Positions 34,184 through 46,896 of a stretch of 64,000 nucleotides of DNA are shown piece by piece. Source of the DNA: a phage. Both the position numbers and the translations under genes were made by a program. The DNA is taken from the sequence record PZ386970.1; one strand, written 5' to 3'. Below the pieces are notes generated by a model that ran no database searches, was not told the origin of the DNA, and worked only from the letters and a program-made list of their open reading frames with translations. Position 1 is the stretch's first letter. Each line of letters begins with the position of its first letter.

Positions 34184-34492
34184 TTACATAAGAAGCAAAC
34201 GTTCTACCGGAGTACCATCAACCGAAATTACTTTATCAAGACGGAAAGAACGCCACTGACCTAACTTGGTATCGAATGCTCGAACTGATTCGCGAGGTTC
34301 ATAACGAACTTCTGTTGCTGGATTGTTATTTTCATATTTGACTTCAAGTTCATCGCGCGAAGCAAACATAGTGCGTACCTCACCATTAGCCTTTTCAAAT
34401 ACAACACAATGAACGCCTACAGACAGAATAGTTTTAATACGTTCACGAAGAACCATAGTTTCTTGTTCAGTTAAAATCATATTATTCACCAC
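34184..34492 (-). CDS. Hypothetical protein (31.1 position)
   Basis: 102-aa ORF coupled to cd. Confidence 0.5.
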   Translation of the reverse strand: MVNNMILTEQETMVLRERIKTILSVGVHCVVFEKANGEVRTMFASRDELEVKYENNNPATEVRYEPRESVRAFDTKLGQWRSFRLDKVISVDGTPVERLLLM

Positions 34493-35063
34493 AAAAGTTT
34501 CGAATTTGTTCCCAATTCAGAGAACGAAGATTATTACGAGAGTACTGAATTACTTCAATACCAGCTTGTTTTAGAATGTCTGCCCAATTTTCAGGAGATC
34601 GGTCATATAATTCTGCATATACAACCTTTTTAATACCTGACTGCGTAATAGCTTTAGTGCAATCAGGACACGGAGAAAGCGTAGTATATAACGTAGCACC
34701 TTCAATAGAATTACCTTTACGAGCTGCAAACAAAATTGCATTCAATTCCGCATGGATTTCGTTATTAGCAGACCATGCACTATGAGCGGCCCGATGTTCT
34801 TTAGCCAAAACAAAATTATCCACCCGTCCAAATGCTGTAGTGCCTTCTTTATGCCCGGCAACGATGACCGGGCTTGGTTTATTCTTCAACCAACCGTTTT
34901 CGGATGCATGTTCGCAACAGTTTGTACCACCTGAAGGAGAGCCGTTATACCCAGTAGAGATAATGCGTCCATCTTTTTCAATGACCGCACCAACTTTCCA
35001 TGAACAACATTTTGATTCTTGAGAAATCAGATATGCAATCTGAAGGTATGTGCTAGCTTTCAT
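34482..35063 (-). CDS. cd: dCMP deaminase
   Basis: 193-aa ORF; zinc-binding deaminase motifs HAELNA and PCxxC; matches T4 Cd (193 aa). Confidence 0.95.
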   Translation of the reverse strand: MKASTYLQIAYLISQESKCCSWKVGAVIEKDGRIISTGYNGSPSGGTNCCEHASENGWLKNKPSPVIVAGHKEGTTAFGRVDNFVLAKEHRAAHSAWSANNEIHAELNAILFAARKGNSIEGATLYTTLSPCPDCTKAITQSGIKKVVYAELYDRSPENWADILKQAGIEVIQYSRNNLRSLNWEQIRNFCGE

Positions 35064-36055
35064 TATTGAACCTTATTAATATAAGTTAACAACTCTTTAG
35101 TTTGTTCCCAACTGATGCACGCATCGGTAATGGAAACGCCATAGGACATATTATCAGAAATTTTTTGATTTCCTTCATGTAGGAACGATTCTATCATAAT
35201 TCCTTTGACCAAATCATTAGCTGCTAAATTTTTACCAATACCAATTTGATTGCTATAATGCCCATCAGCGTTTGCATGGCTACAGTCAACCATTACATAA
35301 TGATTCAGACCTACTGCCCTTGCTTTGTTAGAAGCTTCTTGAATATCAGAAGAATGATAGTTCGGGCCGTTGGTCCCGCCACGCAATACGATATGCGTAT
35401 TCTGATTACCTTCAGCTTCAACAATGCCTACAGTACCATCGACGTCCATACCCATATACCGATGAGGCCAGGCGGCACTATACATCGCGTCTGTAGCTAC
35501 TTTAATAGAACCATTGGTTGCGTTCTTGAAGCCTACGCACATCGGTAGACCTGAAGCAATTTCACGATGTGTCTGACTTTCAGTCGTACGGGCGCCAATA
35601 GCAACCCATGAGAAAATACCAGAAAGATACTTAATCGTGAATGGGTCTAATACTTCAGTTGCTAATGGAAGTCCCATACGTAGAAGTTTACGACACAATG
35701 TTCGTGCAACTATAAGACCGTGGTTCATATCAAAACTTCCGTCAAGATATGGATCATTTACAAGACCTTTCCAACCTACGGTAGTTCGAGGCTTTTCAAA
35801 ATAAACGCGCATCACTAACAGAACATTAGGAAGACGAGTTTGAAGTTCAGCCAGACGTTTGCCGTATTCAACAGCAGCAATAGGGTCATGAATTGAACAA
35901 GGACCTACAACAATAAGTTTGCGTGGGTCTTCACCATTCATAATCGAATTAACTTGTTCGCGATGAGAAGCCACTTGTGATGCGTAAGCTTCCGACAAAG
36001 GAATAATCTCAGCCAGTTCTTTTGGAGAAATAAGTTTTCCGACGACAGGTAACAT
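35063..36055 (-). CDS. 3-deoxy-D-arabino-heptulosonate 7-phosphate (DAHP) synthase, class I (AroG/F/H family)
   Basis: 330-aa ORF; blocks LIVVGPCSIHDP, VMRVYFEKPRTTVGWKGL, GARTTESQ, VGFKNATNGSIKVA, IVLRGG, ESFLHEGNQ, SITDACI are near-identical to E. coli AroG; stop overlaps the cd start (TAATG). Confidence 0.9.
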   Translation of the reverse strand: MLPVVGKLISPKELAEIIPLSEAYASQVASHREQVNSIMNGEDPRKLIVVGPCSIHDPIAAVEYGKRLAELQTRLPNVLLVMRVYFEKPRTTVGWKGLVNDPYLDGSFDMNHGLIVARTLCRKLLRMGLPLATEVLDPFTIKYLSGIFSWVAIGARTTESQTHREIASGLPMCVGFKNATNGSIKVATDAMYSAAWPHRYMGMDVDGTVGIVEAEGNQNTHIVLRGGTNGPNYHSSDIQEASNKARAVGLNHYVMVDCSHANADGHYSNQIGIGKNLAANDLVKGIMIESFLHEGNQKISDNMSYGVSITDACISWEQTKELLTYINKVQ

Positions 36056-36175
36056 AACAATCCTTAGGAGATATAAACAGATTCTGATTCAACAATACCT
36101 TTAACCGGATTAGACAGGCTAAGTTGGTAGTGCTCAGATTTATGACCATTCTCGATAGTAATGAGATAGCTCTCA

Positions 36176-36412
36176 TTATAGTGTTCCATATACTCGAGTT
36201 GCTTCAACAAGACCATCACTGCCTAATTTAAGATTAGTAATTTGGTCACCATCTTTAGGATTAACGATTATGAGAAAAGAACGTGGAGATTCTTGAATAA
36301 CTCGTAATGTTGCATCCTGGAAACGTTCAGACACTTTATTGATGAGTGCTTGAGCAAATTCTTTTACTTTAATCTGAAATTCGTGTACTGTAATTGGGGT
36401 TTCACTTAGCAT
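36176..36412 (-). CDS. Hypothetical protein
   Basis: 78-aa ORF with early promoter motif upstream (36442-36471). Confidence 0.45.
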   Translation of the reverse strand: MLSETPITVHEFQIKVKEFAQALINKVSERFQDATLRVIQESPRSFLIIVNPKDGDQITNLKLGSDGLVEATRVYGTL

Positions 36413-36441: not shown

Positions 36442-36471
36442 ATAGTATCACAACTCCACCATGTTGTAAAC
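36442..36471 (-). promoter_or_regulatory. Early promoter motif (GTTTAC-N18-TACTAT)
   Basis: Minus-strand GTTTACAACATGGTGGAGTTGTGATACTATAACTC upstream of the ORF starting at 36412. Confidence 0.5.
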
Positions 36472-36747
36472 TTAAATTGCAAAACATTTAATTTCTTGTG
36501 AATCGAAATCAACTTCACACTGAATTACTAGATCAGCGTCAAGTCCAAACACAACAATCACATGAGCAGAGCTGGGCAACAATGTAACAGACACAGAATC
36601 CACTTGGTCAGGCACTAGCGTATTCAAAACATAGAGTAGTTCAGAGTGGACCTTAAGCTCAGTAGCCGTATCCAGCTTATCAAAGAAATGATTTGCAATA
36701 ATCTGGCTAAAAACTACCTTTACAATTTCAGAATATTTAGGGAACAT
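36472..36747 (-). CDS. Hypothetical protein
   Basis: 91-aa ORF in the cd-pseT small-gene array. Confidence 0.45.
   Translation of the reverse strand: MFPKYSEIVKVVFSQIIANHFFDKLDTATELKVHSELLYVLNTLVPDQVDSVSVTLLPSSAHVIVVFGLDADLVIQCEVDFDSQEIKCFAI

Positions 36748-37150: not shown

Positions 37151-37151
<1 letters not shown>
36960..37151 (-). CDS. Hypothetical protein
   Basis: 63-aa acidic ORF coupled to the pseT stop. Confidence 0.45.
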
Positions 37152-38237
<1,086 letters not shown>

Positions 38238-41621: not shown

Positions 41622-42797
41622 TTAGAAATATTTTTTGTATGAATTGATTACATTTTGGTCTACATCATTATCAATTTGTGCGACAAGATAAGAACTGATT
41701 TCAACTTCCTGAGGAGCTGCTTGAACTAAATCAGAGTTCAGATATTCACGAATCCAAGGATATGGATGCTTGGTCGGAGCATCAGTGATTGGGCATGGCA
41801 AACCGCACTGTTTCATACGAGACACAGTCAAGTAATCAACAAAAGCACACATACTCTGCGTATTGATACCTGGACATGTACCGTCTTTAAAGAGGTGTGC
41901 AGCCCATTCCTTCTCTTGACTATTTACTTCCATAAAAATGTCAACTGCTTCTTGTTCGCATTCTTTAGCAATTTGAACCCACTCATCACCGTCGGTACCA
42001 GATTGAAGTTGACGGATAATGTACTGAGTACCCTTGAGATGGAGTTGTTCGTCACGAGCAATGAACTTCATAATCTTTGCATTGCCTTCCATAATTTCCA
42101 TATTTTTATGGAAGTTGAAAGTACATGCAAATGACACGTAAAAACGAATAGCTTCTAAGGCGTTGATAACATGCAAACAGAGATAAAGAGACTTCATTAA
42201 ATCACGCTTGGCGTTAAACATTATTTCTTCGTACATCTCAATATCATTCTGCTGGCATGAGCCTAGTGAATACTCATAATTTTCCTTAGCATTTTCCCAA
42301 TGGCGAGTCTTGACTAGAACATCATCGTAATATTTACCTATTGATTCAGCTCGTTTCATGATTGCTTCGTCTAATACAATTTCATCAAATACCTTAGATG
42401 GATCTGTATAAAGATTTCGCATAATATGAGTATACGAACGAGAGTGAATAGTTTCACTGAATGTCCATGTTGCAACCCACGTATCTAATGAAGGGTCAGA
42501 AATCAGTGCCATAAGTACCGCAGATGGGGCCCTGCCTTGGATAGAATCTAATAATGATTGATACTTAAGATTGTTTGTAAAGATGTCCTGTTGGAACTGA
42601 GGAAGCTTATTGAACTGCGCAGAGTCCAACATCAAGTTTACCTCTTCTGGGCGCCAGAAAAACGACAATTGCTTTTCAATAAGTTCTTCGAAAACTTTAT
42701 GACGCTGAATATCATACCGTGCAAGACCAAGACCAGAACCAAAGAACATCGGTTCATTCAAAACATCGACTTGTTGTGTGTTAAAAACTGTACTCAT
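41622..42797 (-). CDS. nrdB: Ribonucleotide reductase small subunit
   Basis: 391-aa uninterrupted ORF; di-iron/tyrosyl radical class Ia R2 features; T4 NrdB is 388 aa. Confidence 0.93.
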   Translation of the reverse strand: MSTVFNTQQVDVLNEPMFFGSGLGLARYDIQRHKVFEELIEKQLSFFWRPEEVNLMLDSAQFNKLPQFQQDIFTNNLKYQSLLDSIQGRAPSAVLMALISDPSLDTWVATWTFSETIHSRSYTHIMRNLYTDPSKVFDEIVLDEAIMKRAESIGKYYDDVLVKTRHWENAKENYEYSLGSCQQNDIEMYEEIMFNAKRDLMKSLYLCLHVINALEAIRFYVSFACTFNFHKNMEIMEGNAKIMKFIARDEQLHLKGTQYIIRQLQSGTDGDEWVQIAKECEQEAVDIFMEVNSQEKEWAAHLFKDGTCPGINTQSMCAFVDYLTVSRMKQCGLPCPITDAPTKHPYPWIREYLNSDLVQAAPQEVEISSYLVAQIDNDVDQNVINSYKKYF

Positions 42798-42852
42798 TAT
42801 ATTTTCTCACTTAGTTATTAACTCATCCATGAGTAAATTATAATCAAAAGTC

Positions 42853-45108
42853 TTAAAGCTTACAAGCAGAGCAATCTTCGGCTTTAGGTGTTTCTAATTC
42901 GTAGTCATCTGTACCTGACCCATCACGAGTGTTATGATAGTAGAGGTTTTTTCCGCCAAAGTACCAGAAGTAAAGCAGATCGTCAAGCATTACCGACATT
43001 GGCACTTTACCTTTCTCAAATACTGCAGGGTCATAGTAAGTATTAGCAGAAGCAGATTGGCACACCCATTTCAACATGATAGCAACTTGGGACAAATAAG
43101 GTTTATTACCTTTCTTAGCAAGTTTCCACGCGTAGTCGTAAAGACTCATGTTATGTTCGATATTAGGAACAACCTGTCGGAAGTTGCCTTCTTTAGATTC
43201 TTTAATACTTACAGGTCCACGAGGTGGTTCTATACCGTTTGTGCTATTTGAGACTTGACTGCTTGATTCGCACGGCATGAGTGCAGACAACGTTGAGTTA
43301 CGAATTCCGTGTTCTTTGAGTTCAGCTCGAAGTTCTTCCCAGTCACAGACGTAGTTCGGGGCTGCGATTTGGTCAATCTTTTTATTGTACCAGTCAATAG
43401 GTAATTCGCCTCTAGACCATTTAGTGTCTGAATAATACTCACAAGGTCCTTTTTCTTTGGCGAGTTTGATTGAAGCTTTGATAAGGCCATATTGTAATCT
43501 CTCGAACAATTCATGAGTCAAATCGTTAGCGTCTTCATATGAAGCAAAGTTAGAAGCTAACCATGCAGCATAGTTCGTAACACCAATACCAAGATTACGA
43601 CGCTTTTTAGCTTTTAAAGCTTCTGGGACCGGATAATCTTGATAGTCTAACAGGTTATCAAGTGCACGTACTTGTACTTCAGCAAGTTCATTAATTTTAT
43701 CTTGGTCTTGCCAATCAAATTTATCTAATACAAAAGCAGATAATGTGCATAAACCAATTTCAGCATCAGGACCATTCACATCATTAGTTGGAATAGCGAT
43801 TTCACAACATAAGTTACTCTGTCGAATTGGAGCTTTTTCACGAATAAATGGAGTGTAGTTATTCGTGTTATCAACAAACTGTGGATAAATTCGAGCAGTA
43901 CCAGAACGTTCAGTCATGAACAATTCAAAGAGTTCTAGTGCTTTGATTCTTTTCTTTCTGATTGTTGGGTCTTTTTCAGCTTTCTCATAAAGCTCACGGA
44001 ATTTATCTTGATCTTCAAAGAACGAGTAGTATAGTTCGCCTGACATTTCGTGAGGGCTAAATAAAGTAATATAATCATTTTTACCAAGGCGTTCCATCAT
44101 AAGGTTATTAATCTGAATTCCGTAGTCCATATGTCGAATACGGTTTTCATCCACGCCTTTGTTATTTTTCAGAACTAATAGGTTCTCTACTTCTAAGTGC
44201 CACATCGGATAATACGCTGTAGCAGCACCACCACGAATACCACCTTGAGAACAAGATTTTACTGCAGTTTGGAAATGTTTCCAGAATGGAATAACACCCG
44301 TATGTCGAACTTCACCCATACCGATCTTAGAACCTTCTGCACGAAGCATACCAACGTTGATACCAATACCAGCTCGTTTAGAAATATATTCAATAATTGA
44401 TGCTGAAGTTTTGTTAATAGATTTTAACGAATCACCGGCTTCAATAACTACACAACTAGAGAACTGGCGAGTTGGAGTACGAGCACCTGCCATAATTGGG
44501 GTTGGCAATGAAACTTGATGAGTAGAAACGGCATCATAAAAACGAATAATATGTTTCAAACGGTCATGGGTTTCGTCTTGGTGTAAGGCCATACCAATAG
44601 CCATGATAGCAAACTGAGGAGTTTCATAAATCTTCCCAGTTGTTTTATCTTTAACTAGATATTTTTCTTTAAGCTGCATAGCACCAGCATAAGTCAGGTC
44701 AAAGTCTCGTTCATGTTTAATCTGTGAATCGAGATAAATGATTTCTTCTGCTGAATATTGAGACAACAGCTCAGGGTCGTATTTGCCTTCATTAACACAG
44801 TAAGAAATATGGTCGATAAAAGCAGGTGGTTCAAACTGCCCATATACATCTTTACGAAGTGCAAACATTAGCCCTTTGGCGGCGACATACTGATAATCAG
44901 GTTCTTCGACAGAAATCGAGTTAGCTGCAACTTTAATACAAATCTTCTGGATATCTTTGGTGCTCATCCCATCAACCAGATGAGTCTTAATTTCTTCATA
45001 CAATTCGTATGGGTCGATTTGTGTTCCTTCACACTGCCAAGTTAAGACTTGAATAATTTTCTGTGCATCAAAATTTTGGGATACACCACTGCTCTTAGTT
45101 ACTTGCAT
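42853..45108 (-). CDS. nrdA: Ribonucleotide reductase large subunit
   Basis: 751-aa ORF (T4 NrdA 754 aa); class Ia R1 catalytic motifs; C-terminal CSACKL. Confidence 0.95.
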   Translation of the reverse strand: MQVTKSSGVSQNFDAQKIIQVLTWQCEGTQIDPYELYEEIKTHLVDGMSTKDIQKICIKVAANSISVEEPDYQYVAAKGLMFALRKDVYGQFEPPAFIDHISYCVNEGKYDPELLSQYSAEEIIYLDSQIKHERDFDLTYAGAMQLKEKYLVKDKTTGKIYETPQFAIMAIGMALHQDETHDRLKHIIRFYDAVSTHQVSLPTPIMAGARTPTRQFSSCVVIEAGDSLKSINKTSASIIEYISKRAGIGINVGMLRAEGSKIGMGEVRHTGVIPFWKHFQTAVKSCSQGGIRGGAATAYYPMWHLEVENLLVLKNNKGVDENRIRHMDYGIQINNLMMERLGKNDYITLFSPHEMSGELYYSFFEDQDKFRELYEKAEKDPTIRKKRIKALELFELFMTERSGTARIYPQFVDNTNNYTPFIREKAPIRQSNLCCEIAIPTNDVNGPDAEIGLCTLSAFVLDKFDWQDQDKINELAEVQVRALDNLLDYQDYPVPEALKAKKRRNLGIGVTNYAAWLASNFASYEDANDLTHELFERLQYGLIKASIKLAKEKGPCEYYSDTKWSRGELPIDWYNKKIDQIAAPNYVCDWEELRAELKEHGIRNSTLSALMPCESSSQVSNSTNGIEPPRGPVSIKESKEGNFRQVVPNIEHNMSLYDYAWKLAKKGNKPYLSQVAIMLKWVCQSASANTYYDPAVFEKGKVPMSVMLDDLLYFWYFGGKNLYYHNTRDGSGTDDYELETPKAEDCSACKL

Positions 45109-45195
45109 ATATTCCTCAGTATAGGTTGATAGACATTACTCCAAACGGGATAGTATTTATCCCGTTAATTTATTATACACTTTTAAACTGAAGCG

Positions 45196-45450
45196 TTAAT
45201 TATCCTCAGCAATAATTTCTTCATATTCTTTAGGAGTCAAGACTGTAATATCGAAATAAACCAGAGGCTCTTTTTCCATACCGAATCCACCACAGAATTC
45301 ACGATATTCATAAATTCGTTCATGTGAATGGCAAATGAATCGTTCACCTTTAACTGTGATTTCACTATTCGGTGAAGGGATATCTAGTTCGGTAGGATTT
45401 TTCATTTCAAAAATTGTGGTGCCATATGAATTAATAAAACGTAAAATCAT
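45196..45450 (-). CDS. Hypothetical protein between td and nrdA
   Basis: Start moved to ATG adjacent to the td stop (MILRFINSYG...); about 84 aa. Confidence 0.45.
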   Translation of the reverse strand: MILRFINSYGTTIFEMKNPTELDIPSPNSEITVKGERFICHSHERIYEYREFCGGFGMEKEPLVYFDITVLTPKEYEEIIAEDN

Positions 45451-45451
45451 T

Positions 45452-46312
45452 TTATACCGCCATTTTAGCTTTGATAGCTGGATGTGATTCGTAATTTTTA
45501 AGAATGAAATCACTCAGATTCATATGCTCTGTTACCCAATGAAGCTGTAATGTCGTGCTCCAATCAGAGAATCCTTCAGGCCAATCAATTTTAAGTTCAC
45601 ACAGTTCTTTAGGCTCACGACGTAAAACTTCTTTGCATTGCTCTACGTGGTTGCTGTAGATATGCGTATTGCCGCCTGAGAACACTAAATCACCCGGGAT
45701 AAGATTACACATCTTAGCCACAATATGCGTCAAGGCGGCGTACGAGGCAATGTTGAATGGCAAGCCCAAGAAAACATCAACACTTCTCTGGTACCATTGT
45801 AAATCAAGATGTCCATTACGCACATTGAACTGATAGAACATGTGGCAAGGAGGAAGAGCCATTTGATTTATTTCGGCCGGATTCCAGGCAGAAACAATTT
45901 GACGACGATCAGTTGGTAATTTTTTAATACGGTCGATTGTTTCAACTAATTGGTCCACACCACCGAAATCACGCCATTGTTTACCATATATAGGACCAAG
46001 TTCACCACTATGATAACCAAGGTCTTTTGCCTGATTTTCGTAATTATCGTCCCAAATAGTTTTACCTTCAATTAGGCTACCATGAGTACGAAGTCGTAAT
46101 TCATTAACATTAGTAGAACCAGACATGAACCACAGTAACTCGGCAATACAAGCTTTCCATGCTAATTTCTTAGTTGTTACTGCAGGGAATCCTTTAGTCA
46201 GGTCCCAACGTAATTTAGTTCCGAACAGGGCAATAGTGCCGGTACCTGTACGGTCGTCTGTTTCATAGCCATTTTCTAAGATATCTTTAATCAAATCTTG
46301 ATATTGTTTCAT
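45452..46312 (-). CDS. td: Thymidylate synthase
   Basis: 286-aa uninterrupted ORF; near-identical to T4 Td over most of its length (MKQYQDLIKDI...ALPPCHMFYQFNV...). Confidence 0.95.
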   Translation of the reverse strand: MKQYQDLIKDILENGYETDDRTGTGTIALFGTKLRWDLTKGFPAVTTKKLAWKACIAELLWFMSGSTNVNELRLRTHGSLIEGKTIWDDNYENQAKDLGYHSGELGPIYGKQWRDFGGVDQLVETIDRIKKLPTDRRQIVSAWNPAEINQMALPPCHMFYQFNVRNGHLDLQWYQRSVDVFLGLPFNIASYAALTHIVAKMCNLIPGDLVFSGGNTHIYSNHVEQCKEVLRREPKELCELKIDWPEGFSDWSTTLQLHWVTEHMNLSDFILKNYESHPAIKAKMAV

Positions 46313-46896
46313 TTATACACGCTCTCAGTAATTTCGGTGAGTTCATCGATTCTGTAGTAATGAGATTCTACCATAGAACGTTGAAGCATAATATCTTGGA
46401 CGAAATCTTTATCAAGTTGAACATCGGAATTAACCCGACATTTCTTAATGATTTTAGTCATCACGATTTCATCGGCATAAGGCAGTGCTTGTTTCAGTAA
46501 AGCAGGGCCACCGATAACAGATACATCAACATGTTCAGTAGAAAGTTTAAACGGTGCATCGGATGCAGGGCTAAACAGATTAATTTCACTACCCATTACC
46601 AAGGTAATAAATTCTGCTTGAGTGATATAGAAATGCGCAAGTTTGTTGGTTTTATTCCTAGGCAGTTTTCTGGCCATATCAGTGACAACCACATGAGTAC
46701 GATCCGGGAGTAGACGAGGTAATGATGCAAATGTCTTAGCACCCATAACCATTACGGTGTTTTTAGTACGAGCAACAAAGTTACTCATATCTTGTTTGAT
46801 ATGCTTCCATGGCAGCCCATCACCTAATCCAAAAGCATATTCCAGTTTATCATCAACGGCTTTAGACGGTGCGCATGCGAACACTAATTTAAGCAT
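46309..46896 (-). CDS. frd: Dihydrofolate reductase
   Basis: 195-aa ORF; matches T4 Frd (193 aa) from memory (AFGLGDGLPW, VIGGPALL, ...LTESVYK). Confidence 0.88.
   Translation of the reverse strand: MLKLVFACAPSKAVDDKLEYAFGLGDGLPWKHIKQDMSNFVARTKNTVMVMGAKTFASLPRLLPDRTHVVVTDMARKLPRNKTNKLAHFYITQAEFITLVMGSEINLFSPASDAPFKLSTEHVDVSVIGGPALLKQALPYADEIVMTKIIKKCRVNSDVQLDKDFVQDIMLQRSMVESHYYRIDELTEITESVYK

Follow-up and report, generated by a model that had tools for sequence, protein, structure and literature searches.

DAHP synthase is the first enzyme of aromatic amino-acid synthesis and constitutes the flux-controlling, feedback-regulated entry to the shikimate pathway. Phage auxiliary metabolic genes can take over such flux-controlling steps of the host. 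Host-type enzymes encoded among the early genes of lytic phages include the nucleotide-synthesis enzymes of T4 and the pentose-phosphate genes of cyanophages, and the phage-encoded DAHP synthase is conceptually similar to these, but aims at the shikimate pathway. The closest described relative of the enzyme considered here is gp185 of the Mosigvirus vB_EcoM_PhAPEC2 (YP_009056797; 'phospho-2-dehydro-3-deoxyheptonate aldolase', PHROG 5045), which is 100 % identical at the protein level and occupies the same genomic slot, while the alleles of the neighbouring genes differ. The gene is thus already known, with annotations in some 200 genomes of T4-like phages and a PHROG family of its own; the annotation is accurate, and the gene is unremarkable among these phages. 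A full-text literature search for functional studies of a phage DAHP synthase or its regulation returned annotation-level mentions only, with two genome papers, on phage phiC120 and Klebsiella phage KLB31, naming it as an auxiliary metabolic gene; the search gave no assay of the enzyme, test of its inhibition, expression record or knockout phenotype. The best-characterised counterparts are the Escherichia coli isozymes AroF (6AGM/6AGL) and AroG (1KFL/1QR7), in which the inhibitor is contacted by Q151/Q152 and S180/S181, with D155 engaged in a stabilising salt bridge, while the AroG variants P150L, S180F, F209A/S, L175D, L179A and V221A are feedback-resistant (PMC9529685). Furthermore, Asp6 and Asp7 form part of the Phe site of AroG, and their replacement confers strong resistance and higher flux through the chorismate pathway (PMC6520568).

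The window, a stretch of 64,000 nucleotides of phage DNA (PZ386970.1), is a Mosigvirus segment carrying gp30, gp31, cd, pseT, nrdAB, td, frd and gp32 in T4 order. The following features surround the DAHP synthase gene:

34482..35063, minus strand: cd, dCMP deaminase of 193 aa, directly downstream of the DAHP synthase gene (PF00383, E 2e-26; PHROG 174; PhAPEC2 annotation)
35061..35065, minus strand: TAATG junction joining the DAHP synthase stop to the cd start (read from the sequence)
35071..35074, minus strand: AAGG Shine-Dalgarno sequence for cd, 7 nt upstream of its ATG and within the 3' end of the DAHP synthase gene (sequence)
35063..36055, minus strand: DAHP synthase CDS, a 330-aa ATG open reading frame; type I-alpha, AroF-like
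36061..36065, minus strand: AAGGA Shine-Dalgarno sequence, 5 nt upstream of the DAHP synthase ATG (read from the sequence)
36176..36412, minus strand: cd.2, 78 aa, DUF7320, preceding the DAHP synthase gene in its transcription unit (PF24005, E 1e-35; PhAPEC2 annotation)
36442..36470, minus strand: sigma-70-like site TTTACA-17-TACTAT with TG, between cd.3 and cd.2 (consensus scan; putative function)

The sigma-70-like site matches the position of an early promoter placed between cd.2 and cd.3 in the T4 record, while a promoter and terminator scan of the region gave a site count no higher than in shuffled sequences. An early promoter probably drives the joint transcription of cd.2, the DAHP synthase gene and cd, with presumably early expression. 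The first-pass annotation had described the gene as translationally coupled to cd, and the overlap of stop and start does exist (TAA at 35065..35063, ATG at 35063..35061, minus strand). However, the same TAATG junction joins cd.2 to cd in phage RB69, and in T4 cd is overlapped by cd.1, so the junction belongs to the cd start and is not special to the DAHP synthase. The AAGG sequence ahead of the cd ATG means that cd could also initiate independently.

The 330-aa open reading frame encodes a type I-alpha DAHP synthase of the AroF/AroG/AroH family. It matches Pfam PF00793 (E 4e-75, 252.6 bits; cut-off 25.5) and the NCBIfam models TIGR00034 (aroFGH; 427.9 bits, cut-off 173.2) and NF009395 (455.3 bits, cut-off 343), and aligns over its full length with the PHROG 5045 profile (E 2.8e-182; residues 1-330 to profile positions 8-337 of 341). 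The scores against the equivalog models for AroG (363.4 bits) and AroH (386.9 bits) fall below their cut-offs of 568 and 463, respectively. The AlphaFold model (pLDDT 93) superimposes on DAH7PS crystal structures with a TM-score of 0.96 and an rmsd of 1.4 A, the same fold being shared with AroG and the Neisseria meningitidis enzyme (TM 0.96), and combines the TIM barrel with the type I-alpha additions, namely the beta6a/6b hairpin (strands 198-203 and 209-214) and the N-terminal helices 11-17 and 22-39; relative to the I-alpha enzymes the model lacks no more than the initial 8-9 residues. All six motifs on which the gene had initially been recognised are present in the translation, and the proposed near-identity to AroG holds for these motifs, but not for the whole protein, which is 47 % identical to AroG and 51 % identical to AroF. 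Among solved structures the best relative in a PDB sequence search is E. coli AroF (6AGM, E 7e-105), followed by the Neisseria meningitidis and E. coli AroG DAH7PS enzymes. The phage protein furthermore carries Gly at the position of AroG residue 211, as does AroF, where AroG has Ser; this position governs the selection of Tyr versus Phe, the S213G variant of the N. meningitidis enzyme binding Tyr (PDB titles). On its identity, best PDB match, Gly at this position and sub-cut-off AroG score, the phage enzyme is nearer to the Tyr-sensitive AroF than to AroG. Relative to AroF it lacks the first nine residues, has internal deletions of five and three residues and has a shorter C-terminus.

The residues that bind metal, phosphoenolpyruvate (PEP) and erythrose-4-phosphate (E4P) are all identical to those of AroG (14/14; C61, R92, K97-T100, G163-R165, K186, R234, H268, E302 and D326), and the same fourteen are invariant in 25/25 representatives of the phage clade, which diverges down to 56 % identity. 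The metal ligands C53, H260, E289 and D311 (AroG Cys61, His268, Glu302 and Asp326) are invariant in all aligned sequences, and the PEP/E4P residues R83, K88-T91, G154-R156, K177 and R225 correspond to AroG R92, K97-P98-R99-T100, G163-A164-R165, K186 and R234. With all catalytic residues kept, as in AroF and AroG, the 330-aa protein is predicted to be a catalytically intact DAHP synthase.

The inhibitor site, in contrast to the catalytic site, is altered throughout the phage clade. A single segment carries most of the changes:

35543..35647, minus strand: effector-pocket segment, residues 137-171 (DPFTIKYLSGIFSW...ASGLP), carrying I141, K142, G146 and P171 (mapped to AroG P150, Q151, D155 and S180)

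When the 124 alignment columns in which 88 % or more of 98 bacterial homologues share one residue were compared with the 25 representatives of the phage clade, just six were found to be fixed otherwise in the phages, corresponding to AroG P150I, Q151K, D155G, S180P, F209Y and T223A. These substitutions are fixed in 24-25 of the 25 phage representatives, while the canonical residues occur in 88-98 of the 98 bacteria. Five of the six (all except T223) are known inhibitor-site or feedback-resistance positions and lie within the nine conserved columns of a set of allosteric positions that had been fixed in advance (hypergeometric p = 3e-6). In the phage protein the counterparts of AroG P150, Q151, D155, S180 and F209 are I141, K142, G146, P171 and Y200, and in AroF terms P151, Q152, D156 and S181 have become I, K, G and P. 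The N-terminus is also curtailed, with L2 of the phage protein aligned to AroG I10, so that it is eight residues shorter than AroG and the segment bearing Asp6 and Asp7 is missing. This truncation is a clade-wide trait, as 25/25 phage proteins have zero to three residues before the AroG I10 column and every bacterial homologue has at least seven. The suggestion that the short N-terminus might deregulate the enzyme is strengthened by the changes found across the clade at feedback-resistance positions. For N-terminal resistance the argument relies on AroG Asp6 and Asp7 (PMC6520568) and not on N-terminal mutants of AroF, a full-text literature search for AroF N8K having given no match. The inhibitor site of the phage DAHP synthase has thus been rebuilt, which may be the novel point about a gene that is itself already known.

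Feedback insensitivity is predicted because AroG point mutants at the same positions are resistant, and the phage enzyme is probably a natural feedback-resistant DAHP synthase, blind to the off-switch of the host. As in the engineered AroG variants P150L, S180F, F209A/S and D6G-D7A, the phage clade is altered at these positions with the catalytic residues intact, while differing from them in that its changes are natural, multiple and chemically different (I, P, Y and a deletion). A multi-residue change of the pocket could also keep inhibitor binding in a new geometry. The best reading of the locus, which we hold with moderate confidence, is that a feedback-resistant DAHP synthase raises flux through the shikimate pathway during infection. 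The metal-dependent enzyme would condense PEP and E4P to DAHP, the carbon-entry step of the pathway, and with catalysis kept and the inhibitor site rebuilt, Tyr, Phe and Trp would be unable to switch it off. Early expression would then override the feedback control of the host and send more carbon to chorismate, and the extra chorismate would supply aromatic amino acids, in which the Tyr-rich phage open reading frames suggest a demand, and other chorismate products for the burst of phage synthesis. The sequence comparisons suggest that many T4-like phages of Enterobacterales have retained a DAHP synthase that is naturally resistant to feedback. As DAHP synthase is the flux-controlling and feedback-regulated entry to aromatic biosynthesis, the finding would be of modest importance; if correct, a lytic coliphage would override the control of an amino-acid pathway, rather than nucleotide metabolism, and a ready-made deregulated enzyme would be available for metabolic engineering.

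It is unlikely that the phage protein is instead an ordinary feedback-sensitive isozyme of the AroF type, whose only contribution would be a higher enzyme dosage once host transcription has been shut off. Such a role would fit the best matches to the Tyr-sensitive AroF, the Gly kept at the AroG 211 position and the unchanged residues D146, P147 (AroF P148), L179 and V221, but four residues known as inhibitor contacts or as single-mutant resistance sites are changed, and Asp6 and Asp7 are gone, across the phage clade.

The first-pass annotation had placed the gene among cd, td, frd and nrdAB and proposed that it boosts chorismate flux towards folate cofactors for the phage Td, Frd and dCMP hydroxymethylase, or towards aromatic amino acids; a supply of p-aminobenzoate and folate would explain its adjacency to cd. 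The DAHP synthase gene does lie directly upstream of cd wherever it occurs and shares its strand with nrdAB, td and frd, and a deregulated enzyme would lift every chorismate product, in line with the flux effect described for AroG (PMC6520568). However, nrdB, nrdA, td and frd (41622..46896) are situated 5.6 to 10.8 kb upstream, separated from it by pseT, the spanin genes, alc, rnlA and denA, so that of the proposed neighbourhood only cd is adjacent. No folate or p-aminobenzoate biosynthesis gene accompanies the DAHP synthase gene in the loci examined. The cd.x region is also variable, with cd.1 in T4 and nothing in RB69 at this site, so that gene position is weak evidence for function. Folate is moreover a recycled cofactor, and the net demand would be small. 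A dedicated role in folate supply is considered rather improbable.

The new pocket residues are themselves very strongly conserved, which is unlike a simply dead site and would be compatible with a different effector or with a structural function. At least 96 % conservation among the phage proteins is reached by 16/23 pocket positions, as against 134/329 over the whole protein, and residues 136-180 are its most conserved part (0.02-0.2 bits). It is conceivable, if doubtful, that the pocket has been re-tuned, with the enzyme responding allosterically to another ligand (such as a nucleotide, a folate or another infection-state metabolite) or being locked in one oligomeric state. The fixation of the substitutions among proteins that are only 56-100 % identical would accord with this, as would the more basic character of the site resulting from the replacement of Gln by Lys and of Asp by Gly. 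However, the loss of the N-terminal lid residues favours lost over changed binding, the candidate ligand is purely hypothetical, and the pocket segment adjoins the GARTTESQ substrate loop, which is invariant, so that catalysis may account for the conservation of the segment. Equally speculative is the broader proposition that the DAHP synthases of T4-like phages form a distinct allosteric subclass, in which the strongly conserved I-K-G-P-Y-A pocket serves to bind an effector relevant to the phage or to hold the enzyme in its active state; were the pocket a working regulatory site, the phage would gain its own control over the entry to the shikimate pathway. A different substrate, as in KDO8P synthase or another PEP aldolase, or an inactive passenger gene is highly improbable, for although the fold and PF00793 are common to DAHP and KDO8P synthases, every NCBIfam match was to a DAHP synthase model and none to a KdsA family at E <= 0.001, 21/21 PDB sequence matches and the top 50 fold matches were DAHP synthases, neither the KPRT motif nor the Cys/His/Glu/Asp metal site is disrupted, and the catalytic residues are invariant down to 56 % identity, which upholds the original assignment to class I DAHP synthase.

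Full-length homologues were found in 213 phage records (tblastn of the whole phage collection, E <= 10), with 140 Mosigvirus records having a copy at least 95 % identical. As the first-pass annotation had stated, the gene is absent from the T4 cd locus, which comprises cd.1 to cd.5 and where cd.1 fills the slot of the DAHP synthase (20 kb of T4 read); the possibility that cd.1 is a remnant of it was rejected, as tblastn gave no DAHP synthase similarity in T4 125-145 kb. No T4 or Tequatrovirus DAHP synthase occurs among the matches listed in the tblastn search of the whole phage collection, the Tequatroviruses matching in the flanks only. The gene is missing from T4, RB69 and most T4-like phages, which makes any benefit conditional. 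As the PhAPEC2-type phages, with the gene, and the RB69-type phages, without it, belong to one genus, the question is directly testable. The survey of the cd locus that had been proposed revealed the same arrangement, pseT–cd.x–DAHP synthase–cd, in Kanagawavirus, Marfavirus, Bragavirus and one metagenomic T4-like contig, with the identity of the DAHP synthase tracking that of Cd (77/79, 68/77 and 58/62 %). The phage enzymes form a monophyletic clade in a neighbour-joining tree, and the top bacterial matches are taxonomically scattered and at best about 55 % identical. The GC3 of the gene (0.30) is like that of its phage neighbours and differs from that of E. coli aroF/G/H (0.50-0.57). A recent capture from the host, which was considered, is ruled out by the scattered matches at about 55 %, the phage-like GC3 and the monophyly of the clade. 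Since it specifies a host-type enzyme, lies in a genuine phage genome and is conserved among related phages, the gene is an auxiliary metabolic gene, as first supposed; but, given the shared slot, phage-like GC3 and bacterial identity of at most about 55 %, it appears to have long been an accessory gene of the pseT-cd region in at least four T4-like lineages, rather than a fresh acquisition.

Within Mosigvirus the gene is carried on a segment with defined ends, which also holds a relic of the adjacent gene:

35067..36160, unstranded: 1094-bp segment carrying the DAHP synthase gene, absent from the Mosigvirus phages RB69 and ECO111 5-P (blastn break points)
36067..36177, minus strand: degenerate duplicate of the Cd.2 C-terminal half (DUF7320), in a frame other than that of cd.2, part of the cassette (PF24005 positions 43-76, E 1e-6)

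Both ends of the cassette read ATAATGA(A/G)AGCTA. The degenerate copy matches PHROG 15876 and 1504, and shares 51 % identity with the Kanagawavirus Entb_45 homologue of Cd.2. Two further homologues were set aside as uninformative, one on an Acinetobacter 'phage' contig that is bacterial-looking, with cobS neighbours and a canonical pocket, and the other on a human-gut contig, which belongs to another DAHP synthase subgroup. The dN/dS value within Mosigvirus is 0.41, an underpowered estimate from only 12 differences that gives no evidence of selection. Tyr makes up 3.95 % of the residues in the window's open reading frames of at least 150 aa and 2.29 % in a 50-kb E. coli sample, both being small samples, and an argument from Tyr demand would hold equally for phages without a DAHP synthase gene. 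Among the neighbouring alleles, cd.3 of the window shares only 71 % nucleotide identity with that of PhAPEC2.

The segment of Mosigvirus DNA in the window follows the gene order of T4, with a DAHP synthase (DAHPS) gene immediately upstream of cd:

gp32, frd (46309..46896), td, nrdA, nrdB (41622..42797), denA, rnlA, alc and the spanins, minus strand, in map order
pseT (37151..38050), cd.4, ORF227, cd.3, cd.2, DAHPS, cd, 31.1 and gp31, minus strand, continuing from the spanins
35063..36055, minus strand, DAHPS ORF of 330 aa with an ATG start
35065..35061, minus strand, TAATG, in which the TAA stop of DAHPS and the ATG of the next gene have one A in common

Both the 330-aa ORF and its stop/start overlap with cd, as described in the first-pass annotation, are borne out by the ORF listing and the raw sequence. 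An AAGGA box, which contains the stop codon of the small ORF preceding DAHPS, can be read 5 nt 5' of the DAHPS ATG, while the next gene, a dCMP deaminase (PF00383, E 2e-26), has an AAGG box within the 3' end of DAHPS.

The protein matches PF00793 (E 4e-75) and the aroFGH equivalog TIGR00034 (428 bits; cut-off 173), and passes the subfamily model NF009395 (455; cut-off 343), while falling below the cut-offs of both the AroG and AroH isozyme models; no KdsA model occurs among its NCBIfam matches. An AlphaFold model (pLDDT 93.3, pTM 0.92) superposes on the AroF, Neisseria meningitidis DAH7PS and AroG structures with a TM-score of 0.96 and rmsd of 1.4 Å. Furthermore, the phage protein is identical to AroG at all 14 residues that bind metal, PEP and E4P, with zero entropy at the catalytic positions across the phage clade. 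On the basis of these family scores, solved relatives, fold and residues, the assignment as a DAHP synthase is secure. The closest solved relative is the Tyr-sensitive AroF of E. coli (6AGM, E 7e-105), followed by N. meningitidis DAH7PS and E. coli AroG, and global identity is highest to AroF (51%; AroG 47%, AroH 44%), so that the enzyme is AroF-like rather than AroG-like as originally proposed.

The gene is a known and annotated, albeit uncharacterised, phage auxiliary metabolic gene (AMG) and is not novel; the initial interpretation was essentially right, without novelty. It gives a full-length match to PHROG 5045 ('phospho-2-dehydro-3-deoxyheptonate aldolase'; E 3e-182), a family classed under morons and auxiliary metabolic genes, and an identical protein (100%) is encoded by Escherichia phage vB_EcoM_PhAPEC2 (Mosigvirus; gp185) and several other phages. 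Full-length homologues occur in 213 phage records (140 at >=95%, 47 at 60-80% and 26 at <60% identity), where they are named aroF, AroG, DAHP synthetase or putative aldolase. This count slightly overstates true phage carriage, since the Acinetobacter phage MD-2021a contig is bacterial-looking (cobS and ribazole-phosphatase neighbours, canonical pocket) and a human-gut 'Bacteriophage sp.' record is an unverified short contig. Two phage genome papers mention the DAHPS domain or name the gene as an AMG, without testing (PMC8022965; PMC11845039), and no functional work on a phage DAHPS or its regulation was found in the literature searched.

The useful new point is a specific, clade-wide rebuilding of the inhibitor site, which provides a sharp and easily tested prediction. 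In AroG, feedback resistance results from the substitutions P150L, S180F, F209A/S, L175D, L179A and V221A; Q151/Q152 and S180/S181 are inhibitor contacts, and D155 forms a stabilising salt bridge (PMC9529685), while D146N likewise confers resistance (PMC9529685; PMC6520568). Asp6/Asp7 also form part of the Phe site, and their replacement retains >80% activity at 0.5 mM Phe and increases chorismate-pathway flux (PMC6520568). The list of AroG inhibitor-site positions, based on the Phe complex, was fixed in advance and then checked against both papers. Asp6/Asp7 have no counterpart in the phage protein because it starts at the AroG I10 column; zero to three residues precede this column in all phage proteins and at least seven in bacteria, in agreement with the shorter N-terminus noted initially. 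Five pocket residues are replaced (P150 by I141, Q151 by K142, D155 by G146, S180 by P171 and F209 by Y200) in 24-25 of the 25 phage representatives, where 88-98 of the 98 bacterial homologues retain the canonical residue. In an unbiased scan, only six columns combined >=88% conservation in bacteria with fixation of another residue in the phage clade (AroG 150, 151, 155, 180, 209 and 223). Five of them belong to the nine conserved positions on the a-priori list (p = 3e-6); the sixth, T223A, is two residues from V221.

The most economical reading is that the phage enzyme is a natural DAHP synthase with predicted feedback resistance. Nowhere are the phage proteins more conserved than at the new pocket residues and across segment 136-180, which indicates a site under selection rather than in decay; the rebuilt pocket may lock the active conformation or bind something else. 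The 79-kb Aeromonas phage HJ05, which is not T4-like, encodes an independent homologue (L011 3899..5062; 37% identity) that retains all catalytic residues and also differs at AroG positions 150, 151, 155, 180, 209 and 211. The canonical inhibitor site could have been lost convergently, or the homologue could descend from a divergent bacterial subgroup.

The order pseT, small ORFs, DAHPS, cd and 31 recurs in Kanagawavirus Entb_45, Marfavirus F48, a metagenomic T4-like contig encoding the most divergent clade member (P0020) and Bragavirus PM2, but with two small ORFs between DAHPS and cd in the last. DAHPS and cd identities to these relatives run in parallel (77/79, 68/77 and 58/62%). In a neighbour-joining tree, the 25 cluster representatives (>=56% identity) form one clade with no bacterial sequence within it, and the nearest bacterial relatives (about 50-55% identity) are taxonomically scattered; no donor lineage can be named. 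The GC content (0.41) and GC3 (0.30) resemble those of neighbouring genes, unlike E. coli aroF/G/H (GC3 0.50-0.57). Slot conservation, parallel divergence, monophyly and GC3 together argue for an old resident of T4-like phages and against recent capture from a host.

In T4 the place of DAHPS is taken by cd.1 (112 aa), and no similarity to DAHPS occurs within this 20-kb region, confirming the absence stated in the first-pass annotation; Tequatrovirus alignments are confined to the flanks. Some 150 records align to the region at >=90%, and the gene is present in 140. It is lacking in ECO111 5-P and in the type Mosigvirus RB69, in both of which the cd.2 stop overlaps the cd start through an identical TAATG. 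The following features describe this polymorphism:

35067..36160, 1094-bp cassette carrying DAHPS, cleanly present or absent within Mosigvirus by comparison with RB69 (L003 6237..6255) and ECO111 5-P
36067..36177, minus strand, degenerate duplicate of the Cd.2 C-terminal half (DUF7320), part of the cassette and inside ORF 36064..36219

The cassette has ATAATGA(A/G)AGCTA at either end. The degenerate copy, directly 3' of the cd.2 stop in a different frame and annotated in some phage records as a 41-aa gene (PHROG 15876), resembles a scar left behind when the cassette arrived. In comparisons with phi25-307 and PhAPEC2, divergence is lowest across the cassette (35063..36175, 98.8-99.8% nucleotide identity, above the flanks), and dS against phi25-307 is 0.022 for DAHPS and 0.163 for cd. 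This suggests recent spread among Mosigviruses, and fits a history in which the cassette entered from a different T4-like phage and then spread via recombination. Loss from RB69 by deletion between the short repeats is an equally possible account of the polymorphism.

Variation was also observed in neighbouring genes. Two cd.3 alleles (36472..36747 in the window) are ~71% identical at the nucleotide level among Mosigviruses otherwise 95-99% identical; the allele in the window is that of ECO111 5-P and differs from those of PhAPEC2, RB69 and phi25-307. The RB69 cd (L003 5668..6252) is annotated as 169 aa versus 193 aa in the window and T4, and its alignment to the window cd has three gap openings, so that it may be frameshifted or have a different C-terminus.

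A sigma-70-like site between cd.3 and cd.2, at the location of an early promoter in T4, and the absence of minus-strand terminator-like sites from there to cd suggest that DAHPS is expressed early together with cd.2 and cd. DAHPS controls how much carbon enters the pathway, so that a single deregulated enzyme could raise every chorismate product. The Tyr content of the phage ORFs (3.95%; E. coli sample 2.29%) fits an AroF-type enzyme released from Tyr control, but Tyr richness also holds for phages without the gene. The earlier proposal that DAHPS raises chorismate flux for folate is possible, its one argument being genomic position, which is weak evidence in a variable region. The best sigma-70 match of the region (35231..35259, plus strand; TTTACC-17-TATAAT with TG, 10/12) is antisense within DAHPS and is probably due to chance, as site counts are no higher than in shuffles.
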